Part shown: one piece after another, positions 387 through 58,413 of the stretch
How positions within the stretch are numbered: the first letter of the stretch is position 1
Layout of the letters: the number at the start of each line of letters is the position of its first letter
From: Bacteroidota bacterium
GTDB lineage: Bacteria; Bacteroidota; Bacteroidia; Flavobacteriales; Flavobacteriaceae
DNA length: 64,000 nucleotides
Direction: 5' to 3'
Assembly (NCBI GenBank): GCA_043783485.1
Contig: JAYVZI010000037.1
Location: 5,813-69,812 of the forward strand
The notes under the pieces: model-generated
Databases searched by the model: none
What the model was told of the DNA's origin: nothing
Seen by the model: the letters and a program-made list of their open reading frames with translations, nothing else
Program-made: the position numbers and the translations under genes

Positions 387-2594
387 TTAAATATTGAAAC
401 TCAACCCAAAAACTAAATTCCGACCAATGTTAGGAATTCCATCGGTTTTTAATCTCGATAAATGCGCAATGTAAGTTTTGTTCAACAAATTATTTCCGTT
501 TAGATTTACATCAAAAACTGTTTTTGCAATTTTCACTTTTCCGCCAATTCCCAAATTTACTAAAGTGTAACCATTAGATTTGGTTTCGAAACCACTTACG
601 TTATTCTGGTTAAAAGTGCTCGAAAAACCAAGTGCTGCAAAACCGTTTTCCAACCATTTTTTGATGTCAAATTCCGTTCTAATCGAATTATTCCAGTTAT
701 TAGCAGGAATTAATGGTAGGAAATCTCCGTTTTGTTTTTTCCCAATAACGGTTTCAAAACTACTTTCTAAGTGCAACCAATCCAACGGATGCGGATGAAA
801 ATGCAAACCAATTTCGCCGCCATACAATTTGGCATTGTTCTGAATGTACTCAAAAACATCGTTTCCGTCAAGAGTAATTCCTGTTGGCGAGGTGTAAATG
901 TAATTGTTTACATGATTGTAAAATCCGTTTGCAAAAAACTCAAAATGGGAATTTTTGTATTCTAAATTCAAATCCGTTTGAATATTTTGTTCGGTTTTTA
1001 GATCATTATTTCCAATTTCGTATCGGTTGGTCCCTCCATGCACGCCGTTTGAAGTTAATTCTGCTAAATTTGGCGCTCGAAATCCTGATGCAATATTTAG
1101 TCGCAAAGTCAAATCGTCCTCCAAATTGGTTTTGTAACCCAACGATGCATTTATGCTATTAAAGGATTTATCAATGGCTTTAAAATAGCCTTCGGTTCCT
1201 AAAACACCATTTTCCTGACTAACTATTTTCCTGTTATCAAACCGCAATCCAGCCTGAATTACATTGGTTTTCCATTCGTAATTTCCAGTTCCAAAAAAGC
1301 CAAAATCATTAGTTGTAGCATTGGGAATTAAATATTCTATCCCAGAATTTTTGTTGGTTTGTTGCATGCCTTGAACTCCAAAAATGGTTTCAATTTTTCC
1401 CAATTTTGGCAAATGAAATTTCGCATCGTAGTTCAAAGTTTTTAATTTTAAATGTAAAACAGCAATATCGCTATCTGCAAATTCGCTTCGATCGTTGGCA
1501 ATATATCCCAAATCGACATCTAATTTAGAGTTTTCAAAGAAAAAAACATTGTTCAAACTCAATAAATTATTATAAACGCCTTGTTTTGGATAAGCCGTTT
1601 TTTTGGTTTTGGTTTGTTCCTCAATCCCATTTTCTGGAATTCCTAAATCTAGTTTATTGAAATTATATCTAAACGTACTTGTAAATTTTTTGTTACTAAA
1701 ACCAATTCCAGTCTTAAAATCACTTTCGTTATAACGTGTATTTGTAACACGATTTTTGTTCGCAATTTGATAATCCGAATGTGTGTTATAACTTCCGCGA
1801 GCTAGAAATTTCCAATTTTCTGATGAGGTTTTCAATCCTAACGAAGTATTGCTTCCCAAAGTATTAGAAAATAATTTTTGACTAAAATCTGCTTTGAAAG
1901 TATTGGTATTTGCAAATTTTTCGGGATTAAAATACAAAACACCGCCAAGCGCATCTGAGCCGTAAAGTAAAGATGCTGGACCTTTTATAACCTCTACACT
2001 TTCTATTCCAGAATCATTCAAACCCAAACCATGTTCATCGCCAAACTGCTGATTTTCTAATCTTACACCCTGCGAATATACCAAAACCCTGTTGCCACTT
2101 AGTCCGCGAATAACTGGTTTTCCTATAGATGTTCCAGTCGAAACTTGCGAAACTCCTGGAATTGTTGCCAAACCTTCTATTAATGTAGCGGTTCCTTTTT
2201 GTTGTAAAGATTTTATGCTTTCGTGCTCGACTTTCATTACGTTTTGCGATTGTAATTTGTTGAAAGCAGTCGAAACAATTACTTCGTCCATCTGAAACGA
2301 GGCTTCCTCGAGAATAATATCCAAAATAGTTTCTTTTTGAATGTTTTCTAAAGTTTTATTTTGGTTAGCAAATCCTACAAACGAAAAACTAATTTTCACA
2401 GTTCCATTCGGAAGATTATTGAAAGAATATTTACCGTTTTCGTCCGATGATGTTCCTTTATGCATTTCGGGTATATAAACCGAAACGTTTTTTAAAGGTT
2501 GATTTTTAGTATCGGTAATGGTTCCCGAAAGGGTGTTTTGAGCATGAATCATGCAGGAAAATCCTAGAATTAGGATTGTTATAATTTTTTTCAT
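387..2594 (-). CDS. TonB-dependent receptor with N-terminal CarboxypepD_reg-like domain, probable metal uptake
   Basis: Signal peptide, plug motifs PVIRGL and VEVIKGPASLLYGSDALGGV, FRAPN barrel motif; His motifs GDEHG, GVHGG, HFHPHP and HLSRLK. Confidence 0.9.
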   Translation of the reverse strand: MKKIITILILGFSCMIHAQNTLSGTITDTKNQPLKNVSVYIPEMHKGTSSDENGKYSFNNLPNGTVKISFSFVGFANQNKTLENIQKETILDIILEEASFQMDEVIVSTAFNKLQSQNVMKVEHESIKSLQQKGTATLIEGLATIPGVSQVSTGTSIGKPVIRGLSGNRVLVYSQGVRLENQQFGDEHGLGLNDSGIESVEVIKGPASLLYGSDALGGVLYFNPEKFANTNTFKADFSQKLFSNTLGSNTSLGLKTSSENWKFLARGSYNTHSDYQIANKNRVTNTRYNESDFKTGIGFSNKKFTSTFRYNFNKLDLGIPENGIEEQTKTKKTAYPKQGVYNNLLSLNNVFFFENSKLDVDLGYIANDRSEFADSDIAVLHLKLKTLNYDAKFHLPKLGKIETIFGVQGMQQTNKNSGIEYLIPNATTNDFGFFGTGNYEWKTNVIQAGLRFDNRKIVSQENGVLGTEGYFKAIDKSFNSINASLGYKTNLEDDLTLRLNIASGFRAPNLAELTSNGVHGGTNRYEIGNNDLKTEQNIQTDLNLEYKNSHFEFFANGFYNHVNNYIYTSPTGITLDGNDVFEYIQNNAKLYGGEIGLHFHPHPLDWLHLESSFETVIGKKQNGDFLPLIPANNWNNSIRTEFDIKKWLENGFAALGFSSTFNQNNVSGFETKSNGYTLVNLGIGGKVKIAKTVFDVNLNGNNLLNKTYIAHLSRLKTDGIPNIGRNLVFGLSFNI

Positions 2595-2602
2595 TTTGAA
2601 AT

Positions 2603-2697
2603 TATTTTATTGTTTTGAGATTTAATAAATTCAGAATCAATGTATAAAGTACACAAGTATGAAAATATTTTTTAAAAATTATTTAAACAATAAAACA
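2603..2697 (-). promoter_or_regulatory. Putative translation-sequestering stem between leader ORF 3' end and TBDR initiation region
   Basis: mRNA arm UGUUUUAUUGUUU (2697-2685) pairs with AAACAAUAAAAUA (2615-2603): 13 bp including one G-U. Confidence 0.6.
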
Positions 2698-3033
2698 GGG
2701 TGGAGCGCGAAGCGAAAAAAGGCTTCCTTTAAAGAATTGAGTTATTTCTTTGGATTTGAAATAAGAATATCCAGAAAAAACGAGGGTATTTTTTAAATTA
2801 TAATGAAAACTATCGGCCGAAATAAAGCTACTTAATGTAAAATCACAAACAAAACAATGATCAAATTTGTGGTGTTCATGAGTAATTTCTAATCGTGAAT
2901 TGTGTTTGTGGAAGCATTTTTTTTCGGTAAGTTGTTTTGCCAAATGCTTATAACTATGCACCGATTGAAATAATATCGAAAACAATATTACTATCGAAAG
3001 TAAAGAATTTATGACAACAAACTTATTTTTCAT
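2683..3033 (-). CDS. DUF2946/CutF-like His-rich leader protein with CxxC and C-terminal RAPP motif
   Basis: N-terminal hydrophobic segment, HKH..HEHHKFDHCFVC, ends LRAPPCFIV. Start moved to ATG 3033 because the ORF-finder TTG at 3042 lies inside the -7 promoter element. Confidence 0.75.
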   Translation of the reverse strand: MKNKFVVINSLLSIVILFSILFQSVHSYKHLAKQLTEKKCFHKHNSRLEITHEHHKFDHCFVCDFTLSSFISADSFHYNLKNTLVFSGYSYFKSKEITQFFKGSLFSLRAPPCFIV

Positions 3034-3039
3034 TTCATG

Positions 3040-3047
3040 CAAATGTA
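3040..3047 (-). promoter_or_regulatory. Bacteroidota sigma-A -7 element (TACATTTG)
   Basis: Matches TAnnTTTG, 6 nt before ATG 3033. Confidence 0.6.
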
Positions 3048-3058
3048 ACTTGAATAAT

Positions 3059-3122
3059 AAAAACTCCGTTTGGATTTAACAAAATTTATGATTTGTCAAT
3101 TACAAACGGAGTTTTTATTTTT
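3059..3122 (-). terminator. Intrinsic terminator downstream of asd
   Basis: AAAAACTCCGTTTG...CAAACGGAGTTTTT inverted repeat. Confidence 0.65.
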
Positions 3123-3126
3123 TGAT

Positions 3127-4116
3127 CTAAACCAAACTATTCTTCACCAAATATTCAGCGATTTGAATTGTATTTGTAGCAGCACCTTTACGTAAGTTAT
3201 CGGCAACAATCCAAAGGTTTAAGGAGTTGGGTTGGCTTTCGTCGCGACGAATTCGACCTACAAAAACATCGTCTTTACCTTCCGCATACAATGGCATCGG
3301 GTAAGTAAATGTATCCAAATTGTCCTGAACAACAACTCCAGATGTGTTGTGTAACAATCGTCTAACTTCGTTTACATCATAATCATTTTCGAATTCTATA
3401 TTTACAGCCTCGCTATGTCCGCCAACAATTGGCACACGAACTGCGGTTGCTGTAACGGCAATGGTTCTGTCATTTAGGATTTTTTGCGTTTCGCGAACCA
3501 ATTTCATTTCTTCTTTTGTGTATCCGTTTTCTTCAAAACTATCACAATGAGGAATTGCGTTTCGGTGAATTGGATATTTGTATGCCATTTCGCCTTGAAT
3601 TCCAGCATATTCGTTTTCTAATTGCTGAACGCCTTTTACGCCAGTCCCAGTTATAGATTGATAGGTGGAAACAATAACGCGTTTTATTTTGTATTTTTTA
3701 TGCAATGGAGCCAAAACCATAACCAACTGAATGGTGGAGCAATTTGCATTTGGGATTATTTTATCGTCTTTGGTTAATATTTCCCCATTTATTTCGGGAA
3801 CGACAAGTTTTTTGGTTTGATCCATTCTCCAAGCAGATGAGTTGTCTATAACGGTTGTTCCTGCTGCGGCAAATTTTGGAGCCCACTCTAAGGAAGTTTC
3901 TCCACCAGCCGAAAATAATGCAATATCGGCTTTCATGTCGATGGCGGTTTGCATTCCTACGACTTTGTATTTTTTTCCTTTAAATTCTATTTCCTTTCCA
4001 ACAGATTTTCCTGAAGCTACAGGAATGAGCTCTGTTACGGGAAAATTTCTTTCGGCTAAAACCTGAAGCATTACTTCGCCAACCATTCCGGTTGCACCAA
4101 CAACTGCTATTTTCAT
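3127..4116 (-). CDS. asd: Aspartate-semialdehyde dehydrogenase
   Basis: VVGATGMVG, DNSSAWRM, NANCSTIQ catalytic Cys, DNLRKGAATN. Confidence 0.97.
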   Translation of the reverse strand: MKIAVVGATGMVGEVMLQVLAERNFPVTELIPVASGKSVGKEIEFKGKKYKVVGMQTAIDMKADIALFSAGGETSLEWAPKFAAAGTTVIDNSSAWRMDQTKKLVVPEINGEILTKDDKIIPNANCSTIQLVMVLAPLHKKYKIKRVIVSTYQSITGTGVKGVQQLENEYAGIQGEMAYKYPIHRNAIPHCDSFEENGYTKEEMKLVRETQKILNDRTIAVTATAVRVPIVGGHSEAVNIEFENDYDVNEVRRLLHNTSGVVVQDNLDTFTYPMPLYAEGKDDVFVGRIRRDESQPNSLNLWIVADNLRKGAATNTIQIAEYLVKNSLV

Positions 4117-54858: not shown

Positions 54859-54939
54859 TAAAAGGTTAGAACGTTTATAAGTTTAGGAGGTTTAGGCTCA
54901 ACCAGACTTTAAACAATAAAAACTTTAAACTAAAAGCAA

Positions 54940-57900
54940 ATGGAACACAAAAATCACGAATTCAGCATATCAAGTTGGGCTGTCGATAACCGAATTACGG
55001 TTTACATCTTAACTTTAATAATCATCGTAATGGGAACAATGGCATACATAAATATGCCACGAGAGGATCTTCCAGAAATTTTAGAAAACAAAATTTATGT
55101 TTCATCTATTTTCCCAGGAAATTCATCGCAAGATGTCGAAAAACTAGTTGTAAAACCACTCGAAGATCAGTTTAAAGGAATTTCTGGAGTCGAAAAAGTA
55201 ACTTCAAGCTCATTTCAAGATTACGGAATGATAGTGGTCGAATTTGATCAAAAAGTTACGCTAGAGGAAGCAAAAATTAAAATAAAGGATAAAGTCGATC
55301 AAACAAAAGCCAAGACCGATTGGCCAAATTTAGACAACGGAAGTAAGGTAGAACCTAGTGTTTTTAACATCAATATTTCCGAGGAAGTTCCTATTTTAAA
55401 CATCAATCTGAAAGGAAATTATACCACACAACAACTCAAAAAATACGGAGAATACCTTCAAGACGAAATCGAGAATGTTCCCGAAGTAAAAAAAGTAGAT
55501 ATTCTTGGTGTCGATGATAAAGAAGTCGAAATTGCCATTGATGTTTTCAAAATGAGTGCTGCTCAAGTTAGTTTTGATGACATTCAAAACGCTGTGAAAT
55601 ACGAAAACATGACGCTATCGGGCGGAAATTTAGTATCTCAAGGATCTAGAAATAATATCCGAATTGTTGGAGAAATTTCTAATCCAGCCGAGCTCAATAA
55701 TATTGTTGTAAAATCGCACAACGGAACGGTTTATCTCAAGGATATTGCAGTTGTGAGTTTCAAAGAAAAAGAAAAAACAACTTATGCCAGAGAAAAAGGT
55801 CAGGAAGTTGTCATGCTCAATATCAAAAAACGTTCTGGTCAAAATATGATTTCGGCTTTAGATCAAGTCAAAGAAATTGTTGCAAAAGCACAAAAAAATG
55901 TCTTGCCTAAAGATCTGGATCTCAAAATGACAAATGATCAATCCGATAGAGTAGAACACCAAGTAAACGAACTTTCTAACCACATTATTTTTGGTATTGT
56001 TCTGGTAATGATTGTGTTAATGTTTACCATGGGACTCAGAAATTCGTTGTTTGTAGGAGCCGCAATTCCTCTTTCTATGTTAATGGCATTTGCAATATTA
56101 TCGGCATTTGGATTTACATTAAACACAATGGTTTTATTTGGATTAGTAATGGGATTAGGACTTCTTGTCGATGACGGAATTGTTGTCGTCGATAACGTTT
56201 TTGCCAATATGCGAAAAGGAATGGACAGAGTTCAAGCCTCAAAAATTGGTATTGGAGAAATCGCTTGGCCTGTAATTTCATCAACAGCAACAACCTTGGC
56301 AGCTTTTATTCCGTTGGCATTATGGCCAGGAACGGTTGGTAAATTCATGGTTTATTTTCCAATAACTTTATCATGTGTTCTTGGAGCATCGTTGTTTGTA
56401 GCAATGGTTATCAACGCAGCAATGACGGGTGGTTTTATGGATATTGAGGACAGAAATATATCTAAATCAGCCTTAAAAAAATATACAATAATATTCATAG
56501 CATCTGGATTATTATTTGCCGTTCCGGGTTATATTTCCAATACAGTTTGGATGCGAGCTATTGGGCATTTATTATTAATTTCGTTAGGATTTATGTGGGC
56601 TTATCATTTATTTTTGTTCAAAGCAACACAAGATTTTCAACATAGTTTTTTCCCGAGATTAGAAGCCAAATATCAAGTATTTTTGGGTAAAATCCTTAAC
56701 GGAAAACGTGCCGTAATTGCATTGGTATCAATCATAGGGTTATTATTTTTCTCGGTAGCATTATTGTTTGTTTTTCCTAGACAAACGTTTTTCTTCCCAA
56801 ACAATATCCCAAAACAAAACATTGTTTATATCGAATATCCACAAGGAACCGATATTGCAAAAACCAACACCGCTACTTTATTTGTAGAGAAACAGGTAAT
56901 CGACATCATGAAAAAATATGTTGATCCTGCTACAAAAGAAAATTTCCTAGCAGAGAGCATAGTTGCGCAAGTAGGAACGGGTGCCGGAAACCCAAATGTA
57001 GATGCCGGAAACCAATCCGAAACGCCGTATAAAGGGAAAGTTACCGTAAATTTTTCGGAGTTTAAGTTCCGTCGCGGAGTAAATACAAACGATGTTTTAG
57101 GAGAAATTCGTAGTAAAGTAAAAAATATTGCTGGAGCAAAAATCACTGTCGAAAAAGATGCTGCCGGACCGCCATCTGGTTATCCAGTAAGTTTGCAATT
57201 GTCGGGATCAGATTATGATCAGATGCTCTTAGAAGCCGATAAAGTAATAGCATTTATTAATTCGAAAAATATTTCGGGTATTGAGAAATTAAATATTGAT
57301 GTTAATAAAGAATCACCAGAACTAGAAGTAAAAATAGATAGAGTTGGAGCAGGAAGTTTAGGAGCAACAACGGGACAAGTAGGTTTTACAATGCGTAGAG
57401 CAATTTATGGTCAGGAAATTTCTAAGTATAAAGAAGGAAAAGACGATTATAATATTGTAATGCGTTTGCAGGAAGACCAGCGCAAAAACGAAAGTGTATT
57501 GTTTAACCAGCCCGTAACTTTCCGAAACCAGAACAACGGACAAATCATGCAAGTTCCTATTTCGGCATTGGCAAAAACCGAAAAAACATATACTTTTAAT
57601 CAAATAAAACGCAAGCAATCTAAACGGGTAATGACTATTTACTCTAATGTTTTAGAGGGTTACACGGGCGATGGGATTACAAATAATATAAAATCGGCTT
57701 TAGAAAACGCCAATTATAAAATGGCTGGCGATATTACTTATGATTTTTCGGGCGAGCAAGAACAACAAAAAAAGGATTCGAGTTTCCTATTCGGAGCTTT
57801 GCTTTTGGAATTAGCAAGTATTACAATAATTATTGTTTTACAATTTAATTCGATCTCAAAAACTTTAGTAATTATGTTTACGGTTTTGCTAAGTTTTTCA

Positions 57901-58413
57901 GGAGTTTTCTTTGGATATGTTTTTGCAGGAATGGATTTTGTAATCCTTATGACCATGATGGGAATTATTGCGCTGTCAGGAATCGTTGTAAAAAACGGAA
58001 TTGTATTAATGGATTTCTTCGTGTTATTATTAGACGAAAAAGTTCGAGTAAACAAACAAAATTCTCATGACGATTTAACGATTCTTGAGATAAAAGAAGT
58101 AATCATCAAATCAGGAAAATCGCGTTTGCGACCCGTTTTATTAACTGCACTTACAGCAATTTTAGGATTAATTCCTTTGGCAATTGGTCTAAATTTCGAT
58201 TTCTTTGGATTAATAACCGATTTGAATCCACATCTTTACATTGGTGGAGATAATGTAATATTCTGGTCACCATTGGCTTGGACTATTATTTTCGGGTTGA
58301 GTTACGCCACGATTTTAACTTTGGTTATGGTTCCTGTAATGTTTTATTTGGTTAAACGAATGAAATATTGGCTGCGTGATCGTAGTGCCAAAAAACAGGT
58401 TGTTGGTTTATAA
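54940..58413 (+). CDS. RND efflux permease
   Basis: GLLVDDGIVV, GIVVKNGIVL, RLRPVLLT, multiple TM segments. Confidence 0.94.
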   Translation: MEHKNHEFSISSWAVDNRITVYILTLIIIVMGTMAYINMPREDLPEILENKIYVSSIFPGNSSQDVEKLVVKPLEDQFKGISGVEKVTSSSFQDYGMIVVEFDQKVTLEEAKIKIKDKVDQTKAKTDWPNLDNGSKVEPSVFNINISEEVPILNINLKGNYTTQQLKKYGEYLQDEIENVPEVKKVDILGVDDKEVEIAIDVFKMSAAQVSFDDIQNAVKYENMTLSGGNLVSQGSRNNIRIVGEISNPAELNNIVVKSHNGTVYLKDIAVVSFKEKEKTTYAREKGQEVVMLNIKKRSGQNMISALDQVKEIVAKAQKNVLPKDLDLKMTNDQSDRVEHQVNELSNHIIFGIVLVMIVLMFTMGLRNSLFVGAAIPLSMLMAFAILSAFGFTLNTMVLFGLVMGLGLLVDDGIVVVDNVFANMRKGMDRVQASKIGIGEIAWPVISSTATTLAAFIPLALWPGTVGKFMVYFPITLSCVLGASLFVAMVINAAMTGGFMDIEDRNISKSALKKYTIIFIASGLLFAVPGYISNTVWMRAIGHLLLISLGFMWAYHLFLFKATQDFQHSFFPRLEAKYQVFLGKILNGKRAVIALVSIIGLLFFSVALLFVFPRQTFFFPNNIPKQNIVYIEYPQGTDIAKTNTATLFVEKQVIDIMKKYVDPATKENFLAESIVAQVGTGAGNPNVDAGNQSETPYKGKVTVNFSEFKFRRGVNTNDVLGEIRSKVKNIAGAKITVEKDAAGPPSGYPVSLQLSGSDYDQMLLEADKVIAFINSKNISGIEKLNIDVNKESPELEVKIDRVGAGSLGATTGQVGFTMRRAIYGQEISKYKEGKDDYNIVMRLQEDQRKNESVLFNQPVTFRNQNNGQIMQVPISALAKTEKTYTFNQIKRKQSKRVMTIYSNVLEGYTGDGITNNIKSALENANYKMAGDITYDFSGEQEQQKKDSSFLFGALLLELASITIIIVLQFNSISKTLVIMFTVLLSFSGVFFGYVFAGMDFVILMTMMGIIALSGIVVKNGIVLMDFFVLLLDEKVRVNKQNSHDDLTILEIKEVIIKSGKSRLRPVLLTALTAILGLIPLAIGLNFDFFGLITDLNPHLYIGGDNVIFWSPLAWTIIFGLSYATILTLVMVPVMFYLVKRMKYWLRDRSAKKQVVGL

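Follow-up and report, generated by a model that had tools for sequence, protein, structure and literature searches.

On the minus strand of a 64,000-nucleotide (nt) stretch of DNA (the window) from a Bacteroidota bacterium of the Flavobacteriaceae (assembly GCA_043783485.1, contig JAYVZI010000037.1, positions 5,813 to 69,812 of the forward strand), a 116-codon open reading frame (ORF) ending in RAPP-CFIV precedes the gene for a TonB-dependent receptor. Our analysis suggests that this ORF is a translated arrest leader that controls the receptor after the onset of transcription. A ribosome stalled at RAPP would open a helix that otherwise masks the receptor start, and metal would release the stall. 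Based on the sequence, on thermodynamic models, and on analogy with characterized leaders, this reading is assigned a probability of roughly 0.72. The elements of the locus on which it depends are as follows.

2683-3033, minus strand: leader ORF, 116 amino acids, ATG at 3033, stop codon at 2685-2683.
2962-3018, minus strand: N-terminal hydrophobic segment, approximately residues 6 to 24 (from the sequence and an AlphaFold2 helix).
2845-2958, minus strand: putative metal-sensing segment, residues 26 to 63 (H26, H30, C40, H42, H52, H54, and C60-x-x-C63).
2698-2736, minus strand: candidate arrest module FFKGSLFSLRAPP, residues 100 to 112 (RAPP codons at 2709-2698).
2685-2697, minus strand: 5' arm of the switch helix, made of the CFIV codons and the first base of the stop codon, beginning right after the second Pro codon.
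2603-2615, minus strand: 3' arm of the switch helix, positions -21 to -9 of the receptor start, containing A-12 and A-13.
387-2594, minus strand: TonB-dependent receptor gene, 735 amino acids, ATG at 2594.

In the window, the bases at 2697 to 2685 (UGUUUUAUUGUUU) pair with those at 2615 to 2603 (AAACAAUAAAAUA) through 12 Watson-Crick pairs and one G-U pair. This agrees with an initial annotation of the window, which had pointed out the complementarity between these bases and positions -21 to -9 of the receptor start. The leader-receptor spacer of the window copy is 88 nt long and AT-rich, and the minimum-free-energy fold of the region includes the switch helix. Taken by itself, this single sequence is compatible with a chance match between AT-rich tracts, an explanation that the initial annotation had itself raised; as judged from the sequence comparisons described below, chance is excluded.

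Loci carrying the leader were fetched (80 plus 30 of approximately 477 species-level loci). Folds of the RNA from the Pro codons to the receptor start gave the same long-range helix in nearly all of them. The bases that follow the Pro codons (in one class, the Pro codons as well) pair with the tract upstream of the receptor AUG, and the helix encloses an inner hairpin that varies in length and sequence. The leaders fall into tail classes (xFIV, xV, xFKLF, HSLVS, AIVS, VNV, NFI, and LNLK) with differing arms, and complementarity is kept among them, as in the following pairs.

xFIV class: 5' arm UUUUAUUGUUUAA; 3' arm UUAAACAAUAAAA.
xV class: 5' arm GUUUAAAAUA (plus CCUCC); 3' arm UAUUUUGAAC (plus GGAA beside the AUG).
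xFKLF class: 5' arm UUCAAAU; 3' arm AUUUUGAA.
L087 (tail HSLVS): 5' arm AUUCUUUAGUU; 3' arm AACUAAAGAAU.
L091 (tail VNV): 5' arm AAUGUUUAAUA; 3' arm UAUUAAACAUU.
L095 (tail NFI): 5' arm AUUUCAUUUAAU; 3' arm AUUAAAUGAAAU.
L110 (tail LNLK): 5' arm AAUUUAAAAUA; 3' arm UAUUUUAAAUU.

The last four loci have tails unrelated to that of the main (xFIV) class, and their arms are perfect complements of 11 to 12 bp. The 3' arm of the main class, AAACAAUAAAAU at -21 to -9, contains no Shine-Dalgarno sequence. When a covariance model (R1) was built from the xFIV-class helix, it failed to recover the other classes, as their sequence differences would predict.

The specificity of this pairing was assessed by permutation. 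From each of 19 distinct 5'-arm classes one member was taken, and the receptor starts were swapped among them, with composition and context held fixed. Pairing of an arm with its own start averaged -8.34 kcal/mol, compared to -5.68 ± 0.52 kcal/mol for the permuted starts (z = -5.1; p about 1e-5), and pairing across classes was weaker than own pairing. Conservation of the stem across Flavobacterium loci, on which the initial annotation had made its proposal depend, was thus found in orthologues as well as in paralogues with different arms. A null distribution drawn from all ORF starts in the fetched loci was dropped because internal Met codons of a truncated neighbour gene, recurring many times, made up most of it. 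Within the main class, compensatory changes were found at the x codon (AGU, AUU, or GUU opposite U/C, A, or C), in a change of GUU to GCA accompanied by A to U on the other arm, and in locus L034, where AUU is replaced by AGU together with changes in the partner. In a MAFFT alignment of the main class, 78.9% of cells were paired, versus 41 to 57% when the partner was slid by 1 to 3 columns; MAFFT mis-registers the 3' end of this alignment, and per-pair counting is only modestly informative.

Two further features of the helix were noted. In the xV class (L044, L045, L048, L066, L069, L074, and L082), the Pro codons read CCUCC, the anti-Shine-Dalgarno core, and pair with GGAA or GGGAA located 1 to 3 nt before the receptor AUG, so that the putative stall codons are themselves part of the masking helix. 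In six loci (L001, L003, L005, L006, L032, and L039), a GC-rich palindrome, AGACCUGACAGGUUUU...AAAACCUGUCAGGUCU, recurs in the helix loop; this has the look of a small palindromic repeat that can insert and leave the outer helix intact.

Next, codon usage in the tail was compared with that in the rest of the same genes for 52 distinct xFIV-class genes (Fisher test). The Phe codon of the tail is UUU in all 52 (74% elsewhere in these genes), Ile is AUU in 94% (45% elsewhere), and Val is GUU in 93% (35% elsewhere), a freeze of synonymous sites (p between 7e-7 and 3e-14). At their third positions, the two Pro codons show 15 different combinations, indicating that the set has diverged enough for such a codon comparison. 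Since the tail residues would not yet be part of the peptide at the moment of the stall, conservation of the tail is best explained by the helix.

The position of the 5' arm fits the geometry of a characterized arrest. For the arrest leader CruR, toeprinting places both Pro codons in the P and A sites, and arrest has been shown in vitro (PMC12992588). ApdA and ApdP have likewise been shown to arrest in this way, and for the window leader such a stall is indirectly supported by the invariance of its motif and by the scarcity of RAPP and RGPP in Bacteroidota proteomes. With a stall of this type, the 5' arm starts at the first base past the A-site codon, and most of it would therefore lie within the mRNA channel of the stalled ribosome. 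In a footprint model, base-pair probabilities were computed for 89 loci with positions -15 to +15 around the P site forced to be single stranded. The mean unpaired probability of positions -22 to -6 of the receptor start was 0.29 in free RNA, 0.62 with the footprint at the stall site, and 0.29 with a control footprint placed 27 nt upstream. An increase of more than 0.2 was seen in 68 of the 89 loci, and for the window copy the probability went from 0.18 to 0.73. In these thermodynamic models, the idea that a ribosome at RAPP frees the receptor start, as first put forward in the initial annotation, was borne out, as was every other part of that interpretation accessible to sequence analysis.

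The masked tract also matches what is known of translation initiation in this group. Bacteroidia ribosomes do not use Shine-Dalgarno sites, and in Flavobacterium johnsoniae both structure around the start codon region and adenines at -3, -6, -12, and -13 tune initiation (PMC6847099). The 3' arm covers A-12 and A-13, positive determinants in F. johnsoniae (PMC6847099), in agreement with the earlier proposal that an A-rich start zone, rather than a Shine-Dalgarno site, is what the helix hides.

The leader peptide was then characterized. The ORF at 2683 to 3033 was confirmed to have the hydrophobic N terminus, His/Cys segment, and RAPP-CFIV end described initially. Its N terminus is MKNKFVVINSLLSIVILFSILF (opening with MKNKFVVINSLLSIVILFSILFQSVHSYKHL), its middle part is CFHKHNSRLEITHEHHKFDHCFVC, and its C-terminal end is FFKGSLFSLRAPPCFIV; CFVC corresponds to C60-F-V-C63, and RAPP occupies residues 109 to 112 of 116 and is followed by CFIV. 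The Lys-rich N terminus is followed by a hydrophobic stretch of 18 residues that, from its sequence, would be either a signal peptide or a membrane anchor, and the Lys residues ahead of it suggest an N-in orientation. Residues 26 to 63, with their His and Cys residues, would bind metal. AlphaFold2, run with a 29-sequence alignment, was confident only for a helix over residues 2 to 37. No match to the leader family turned up in a profile search of the PDB, and Pfam and NCBIfam scans of the leader found no family above threshold.

A search of 5.8 billion proteins identified 162 relatives of the leader at 55 to 97% identity, nearly all of them 116 residues long and from Flavobacterium, and a profile search of 1.84 billion cluster representatives placed the family in 263 clusters at 50% identity. 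Close relatives share nine residues without exception (Q23, H26, H30, C40, H42, H52, H54, C60, and C63), and their block FFKGSLF[AS]LR[AG]PP is nearly invariant. In a set of 95 diverse relatives, no exception occurs at C60, C63, R109, P111, or P112, and conservation reaches 90% or more at H26, H30, H42, and H54. The motif R-[A/G]-P-P is invariant and lies 2 to 5 codons from the stop in all loci, and the spacing from CxxC to RAPP, 45 residues in the window, is 43 to 46 residues across 29 paralogues and distant relatives.

The distribution of the family was examined with a profile in 401 Bacteroidota genomes. All 15 genomes of the window's genus carry it, with 1 to 4 copies each, and these Flavobacterium genomes include fish pathogens such as F. 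psychrophilum. Outside the genus but within the same family, 13 genomes representing 12 genera gave no match, and three weak matches were found elsewhere among the 401 genomes. The window's own genome, which is approximately 70% complete, contains one copy. Because no sampled Flavobacterium genome lacks the leader family, trace-metal uptake in the genus is probably shaped by it.

Upstream of the leader, the following features were found.

3040-3047, minus strand: -7 promoter box of the Bacteroidota type, TACATTTG (consensus TAnnTTTG), with the leader ATG 6 nt downstream.
3059-3116, minus strand: terminator-type hairpin with a T run after the asd-like gene (arms 3116-3103 and 3072-3059).
3127-4116, minus strand: asd-like gene, followed by the hairpin.

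In 75 of 79 loci, the consensus TAnnTTTG ends 5 to 7 nt ahead of the leader's ATG. Because transcription in F. johnsoniae starts 4 to 5 nt past the -7 box (PMC6847099), the 5' untranslated region of the leader is predicted to be 0 to 2 nt long. The leader mRNA would thus be nearly leaderless, with its predicted start 1 to 2 nt before the ATG in the window. Such mRNAs are a minority in F. johnsoniae, where only 13% of predicted transcripts have leaders of 10 nt or less and 87% have longer ones. An alternative TTG at 3042, which would give a 119-amino-acid frame, sits within the promoter box.

The hairpin at 3059 to 3116 is probably the asd terminator and is the upstream boundary of the leader promoter; it was not called by a simple terminator scan because its loop is longer than 8 nt. 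A hairpin of -12 kcal/mol or stronger is present between -120 and -20 in 71 of 79 loci, with variable stem sequence and conserved pairing. Its lower stem differs from species to species while remaining paired (CCGATTGAC/GTTAATCGG, CCAGTTGAC/GTTAGCTGG, and CCGTTTGG/TCAAACGG), and its upper part, e.g., CAAATCATAAAATTTGTTAAA, is conserved. An Rfam search gave weak chance matches on this asd terminator hairpin only and none on the switch region.

Together, these results suggest the following working model. The -7 box 6 nt before the ATG would yield a near-leaderless mRNA. The hydrophobic segment would target the nascent leader to the membrane, placing the His/Cys part (HxxxH, CxH, HxH, and CxxC) outside the cytoplasm while the arrest module is still in the ribosome tunnel. 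The ribosome would then stall when its P and A sites contain the two Pro codons and would cover the next ~10 nt, the 5' arm of the 13-bp helix, whose 3' arm is the A-rich tract at -21 to -9 of the receptor start. As long as the stall is held, the receptor start would be open and the receptor would be made. Upon release, four more codons would be translated before termination, the helix would re-form, and initiation, which here does not rely on a Shine-Dalgarno site, would be blocked. The most likely trigger of release would be metal bound by the exported sensor segment, as proposed for CruR, such that uptake is turned off when metal is plentiful.

Several observations weigh against this model. 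The fold that had been anticipated at the leader-receptor junction contains the helix, but it is modest compared with shuffled sequences (z = -1.9). When all 48 of the window's long ORFs were ranked by how well the 40 nt ahead of each pair with the 5' arm, the receptor start came 2nd. The covariation that the initial annotation had looked to was borne out as complementarity at the level of classes, but per-pair covariation within the main class is modest: the core hardly varies, 5 pairs have changes in both partners, and the observed covariation score is equalled in 29 of 500 shuffles. A few loci (L077, L092, L093, L097, and L085) have no convincing helix. For the leader itself, the AlphaFold2 model is poor (predicted local distance difference test score of 54) and no metal site is visible in it, and the Pfam model of DUF2946 (PF11162; gathering score of 23.7 bits) misses the window leader, with no match at an E value of 1 or less. 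Finally, CutF, which belongs to the same family, works with the opposite sign, metal inducing the stall.

The start that ranked first for pairing with the 5' arm is preceded by the tract UUUAAACAAUAAAAAC (54905-54920, plus strand), upstream of an ORF at 54940 to 58413 (1157 residues) taken to be a resistance-nodulation-division (RND)-type transporter. This tract matches the consensus 3' arm and pairs at -11.7 kcal/mol, versus -11.4 kcal/mol for the receptor start; the match is most likely due to chance in an A-rich start region.

The alternative that survives best, although we consider it unlikely, is a transcriptional switch as in CruR, in which the stalled ribosome blocks Rho and release leads to Rho-dependent termination before the receptor, the helix being secondary or serving another purpose. 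The Rho mechanism has been demonstrated for the closest characterized relative, CruR-BfrG (PMC9426467). The intergenic region is also richer in C (14.5%) than in G (9.8%), and untranslated receptor mRNA would be exposed to Rho anyway, in which case layers of control by Rho and by the helix could coexist. However, the spacer is short (median, 72 nt) and AT-rich, with only 9 C residues in the window copy, whereas that of CruR is 162 nt long and GC-rich, and a Rho switch would leave the class-specific complementarity and the frozen synonymous sites unexplained. No intrinsic terminator was found by the simple terminator scan; this result and the strong evidence for the helix favour a translational design with CruR-like logic.

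A second alternative keeps the architecture and reverses the sign, as in CutF: metal would cause or prolong the stall, and the receptor would be made when metal is present. CutF works in this way, with a stem-loop shielding cutO's ribosome-binding site (bioRxiv 10.1101/2025.02.05.636593), and some paralogues of the window leader precede genes for ATP-binding cassette (ABC) ATPases rather than receptor genes. The target here, however, is an uptake-type receptor, as for CruR; RAPP and RGPP are intrinsic stallers, unlike the EF-P-sensitive PPP of CutF; and one paralogue precedes a COG0523 GTPase gene. COG0523 GTPase genes are usually induced by metal shortage. We regard the reversed sign as improbable.

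It is more doubtful still that the leader is a stable membrane or periplasmic metal-binding protein that partners the receptor, with RAPP a mere C-terminal feature and the helix a general operon or mRNA stability element. Conservation over all 116 residues, beyond the tail, would fit a stable protein, the conserved His and Cys residues could have a chaperone role, and protein and regulatory roles are compatible with each other. Nevertheless, the invariant near-terminal R-[A/G]-P-P and its fixed spacing from CxxC speak against this reading, the codons after the two Pro codons are conserved as RNA and not as protein, and the predicted structure is disordered beyond the N-terminal helix. In addition, RAPP and RGPP are strongly under-represented in Bacteroidota proteomes (0.14 and 0.17 of expectation, respectively; PMC12992588), being avoided except in leaders of this kind. 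The remaining explanation, that a U-rich tail matches by chance the sort of A-rich tract that most Bacteroidota genes have upstream, can draw on the rank of 2 of 48, on the equally good pairing of the unrelated RND pump start, and on the low fold z score, but it is next to impossible given the permutation result over 19 arm classes with its weaker cross-class pairing, the perfect 11- to 12-bp complements of L087, L091, L095, and L110, and the suppressed synonymous variation of the tail.

Almost every copy of the leader is located 36 to 160 nt upstream of a receptor gene. The genes downstream of the leaders were surveyed in the fetched loci. A receptor gene begins 52 to 123 nt after the leader stop in 71 of the 75 loci with downstream DNA, and the receptors fall into length classes of 666, 670, 735, 739, 794, and 814 residues. 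The window receptor has a CarboxypepD_reg-like domain (PF13715), a plug (PF07715), and a barrel (PF00593) in a Pfam scan; its best NCBIfam matches are ZnuD (168 bits; cutoff, 950) and heme receptors, all below their cutoffs. Among the paralogous leaders, L107 precedes a COG0523 (CobW/ZigA-like) GTPase gene; L083, L084, L086, and L100 precede an ABC ATPase gene that has another receptor gene after it; and L105, L108, and L109 precede DUF4625 lipoprotein genes. The spacers of these leaders measure 222 to 352 nt. For paralogues with spacers of 209 to 352 nt, which include the ABC, COG0523, and DUF4625 ones, no 3' arm could be placed at the called start; either their starts are mis-called or their design differs. 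Receptors of 793 or 794 residues (L044, L045, L048, L054, L069, and similar loci) usually precede a conserved gene for a lipoprotein of ~185 residues, and 735-residue receptors are often trailed, at some distance, by a gene for a membrane protein of ~126 residues (MNSMFTKIVR...). Neither the ~185-residue lipoprotein nor the ~126-residue membrane protein matched a Pfam or NCBIfam family.

As to the metal, zinc is our first guess and copper our second. Zinc is weakly indicated by the 735- and 670-residue receptors, which match ZnuD best, by the paralogue located before the COG0523 GTPase gene, and by the His-rich sensor; the CxxC motif and the CruR precedent point to copper. The receptors do not assign the metal, since all classes match ZnuD, heme, and copper receptor models at scores far below the cutoffs. 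A more extended picture, which we put forward tentatively and hold to be somewhat doubtful, is that the Flavobacterium branch combines a leaderless mRNA with a noncopper metal (most likely zinc) and hides the A-rich -12/-13 tract as a natural on/off handle on Shine-Dalgarno-independent start selection, with 1 to 4 copies per genome acting on different receptor classes and on a COG0523 gene of metallochaperone type.

If the proposed model is correct, metal control by arrest peptides, as exemplified by CruR and CutF, would extend to the Bacteroidota, and the locus would show a stall-operated RNA switch that lacks a Shine-Dalgarno site and masks an A-rich upstream tract instead. The leader and helix would constitute a compact module that is directly testable in F. 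johnsoniae, for which reporters and ribosome profiling are available, although the principle itself is not new. The initial annotation had implied more novelty than is warranted: CruR and CutF are published, and members of the leader family appear in the source data of PMC12992588.

The kinship with CruR and CutF proposed at the outset is supported by the CxxC motif, the spacing of 43 to 46 residues, the hydrophobic N terminus, and the place of the leader as first gene of a TonB receptor operon. The CruR family has been defined by CxxC, by RAPP 3 to 4 residues from the C terminus, and by 45 ± 2 residues between them (PMC9426467). A PF11162 search of the window's own genome gave no match; sub-threshold DUF2946 matches were obtained for 7 of 29 relatives and for 30 of the 95 diverse relatives (best E value, 1.1e-4), and DUF2946 was the most frequently recurring family. 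Because CxxC, RAPP, the spacing of about 45 residues, and the head position in a TonB receptor operon are all present, we read the leader as belonging to a divergent CruR-family branch outside the reach of the Pfam model.

The closest likeness is to CruR (Bp2923)-BfrG of Bordetella pertussis, in which, as here, a leader with CxxC, RAPP, and a 45-residue gap is the first gene before a TonB-dependent receptor and in which the downstream gene requires the stall in order to be expressed (PMC9426467). The window branch differs from CruR in scoring below the Pfam threshold and in having the additional invariant residues H26, H30, H42, and H54. It also has a short AT-rich spacer with a start-masking helix, whereas CruR has a 162-nt GC-rich spacer with Rho-dependent termination. 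CutF-cutO of Rhodobacter capsulatus, a DUF2946 system, shares the principle of a stem-loop hiding the target's ribosome-binding site, that of cutO (PMC9973294; bioRxiv 10.1101/2025.02.05.636593). CutF has CxxxC, an EF-P-sensitive PPP, a shielded Shine-Dalgarno site, a detoxifying oxidase as its target, and a stall that occurs upon copper binding, whereas the window branch has RAPP or RGPP, a masked A-rich tract devoid of a Shine-Dalgarno site, and an uptake receptor as its target.

SecM-secA, ApdA, and ApdP (PMC7897499, PMC10951233) resemble the window leader, with its putative membrane-targeting segment, in combining an N-terminal localization signal with a C-terminal arrest motif (RAGP or RAPP), and in them a stalled ribosome opens a helix that hides a downstream start, as proposed here. 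These leaders monitor Sec or YidC and control the localization machinery, whereas the window leader has a His/Cys sensor and a receptor target. In the Chiba laboratory survey of RAPP/RGPP upstream ORFs, the "TonB-related" rows include members of the window leader family (PMC12992588, Fig. 4 source data), such as WP_066079479.1, which ends in FFKGSLFALRAPPAV and lies before a TonB-dependent receptor, and WP_163391918.1, which lies before a DUF4625 gene. That survey lists the leaders by motif and downstream annotation; the helix, promoter, and sensor residues were not analysed there. The kind of system is thus already established by CruR (2022) and CutF (2023, 2025), and the leader has been catalogued as rows of a survey. 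What is new here is the conserved helix masking a non-Shine-Dalgarno start, the near-leaderless promoter, the His-rich sensor, and the genus-wide spread with several paralogues.

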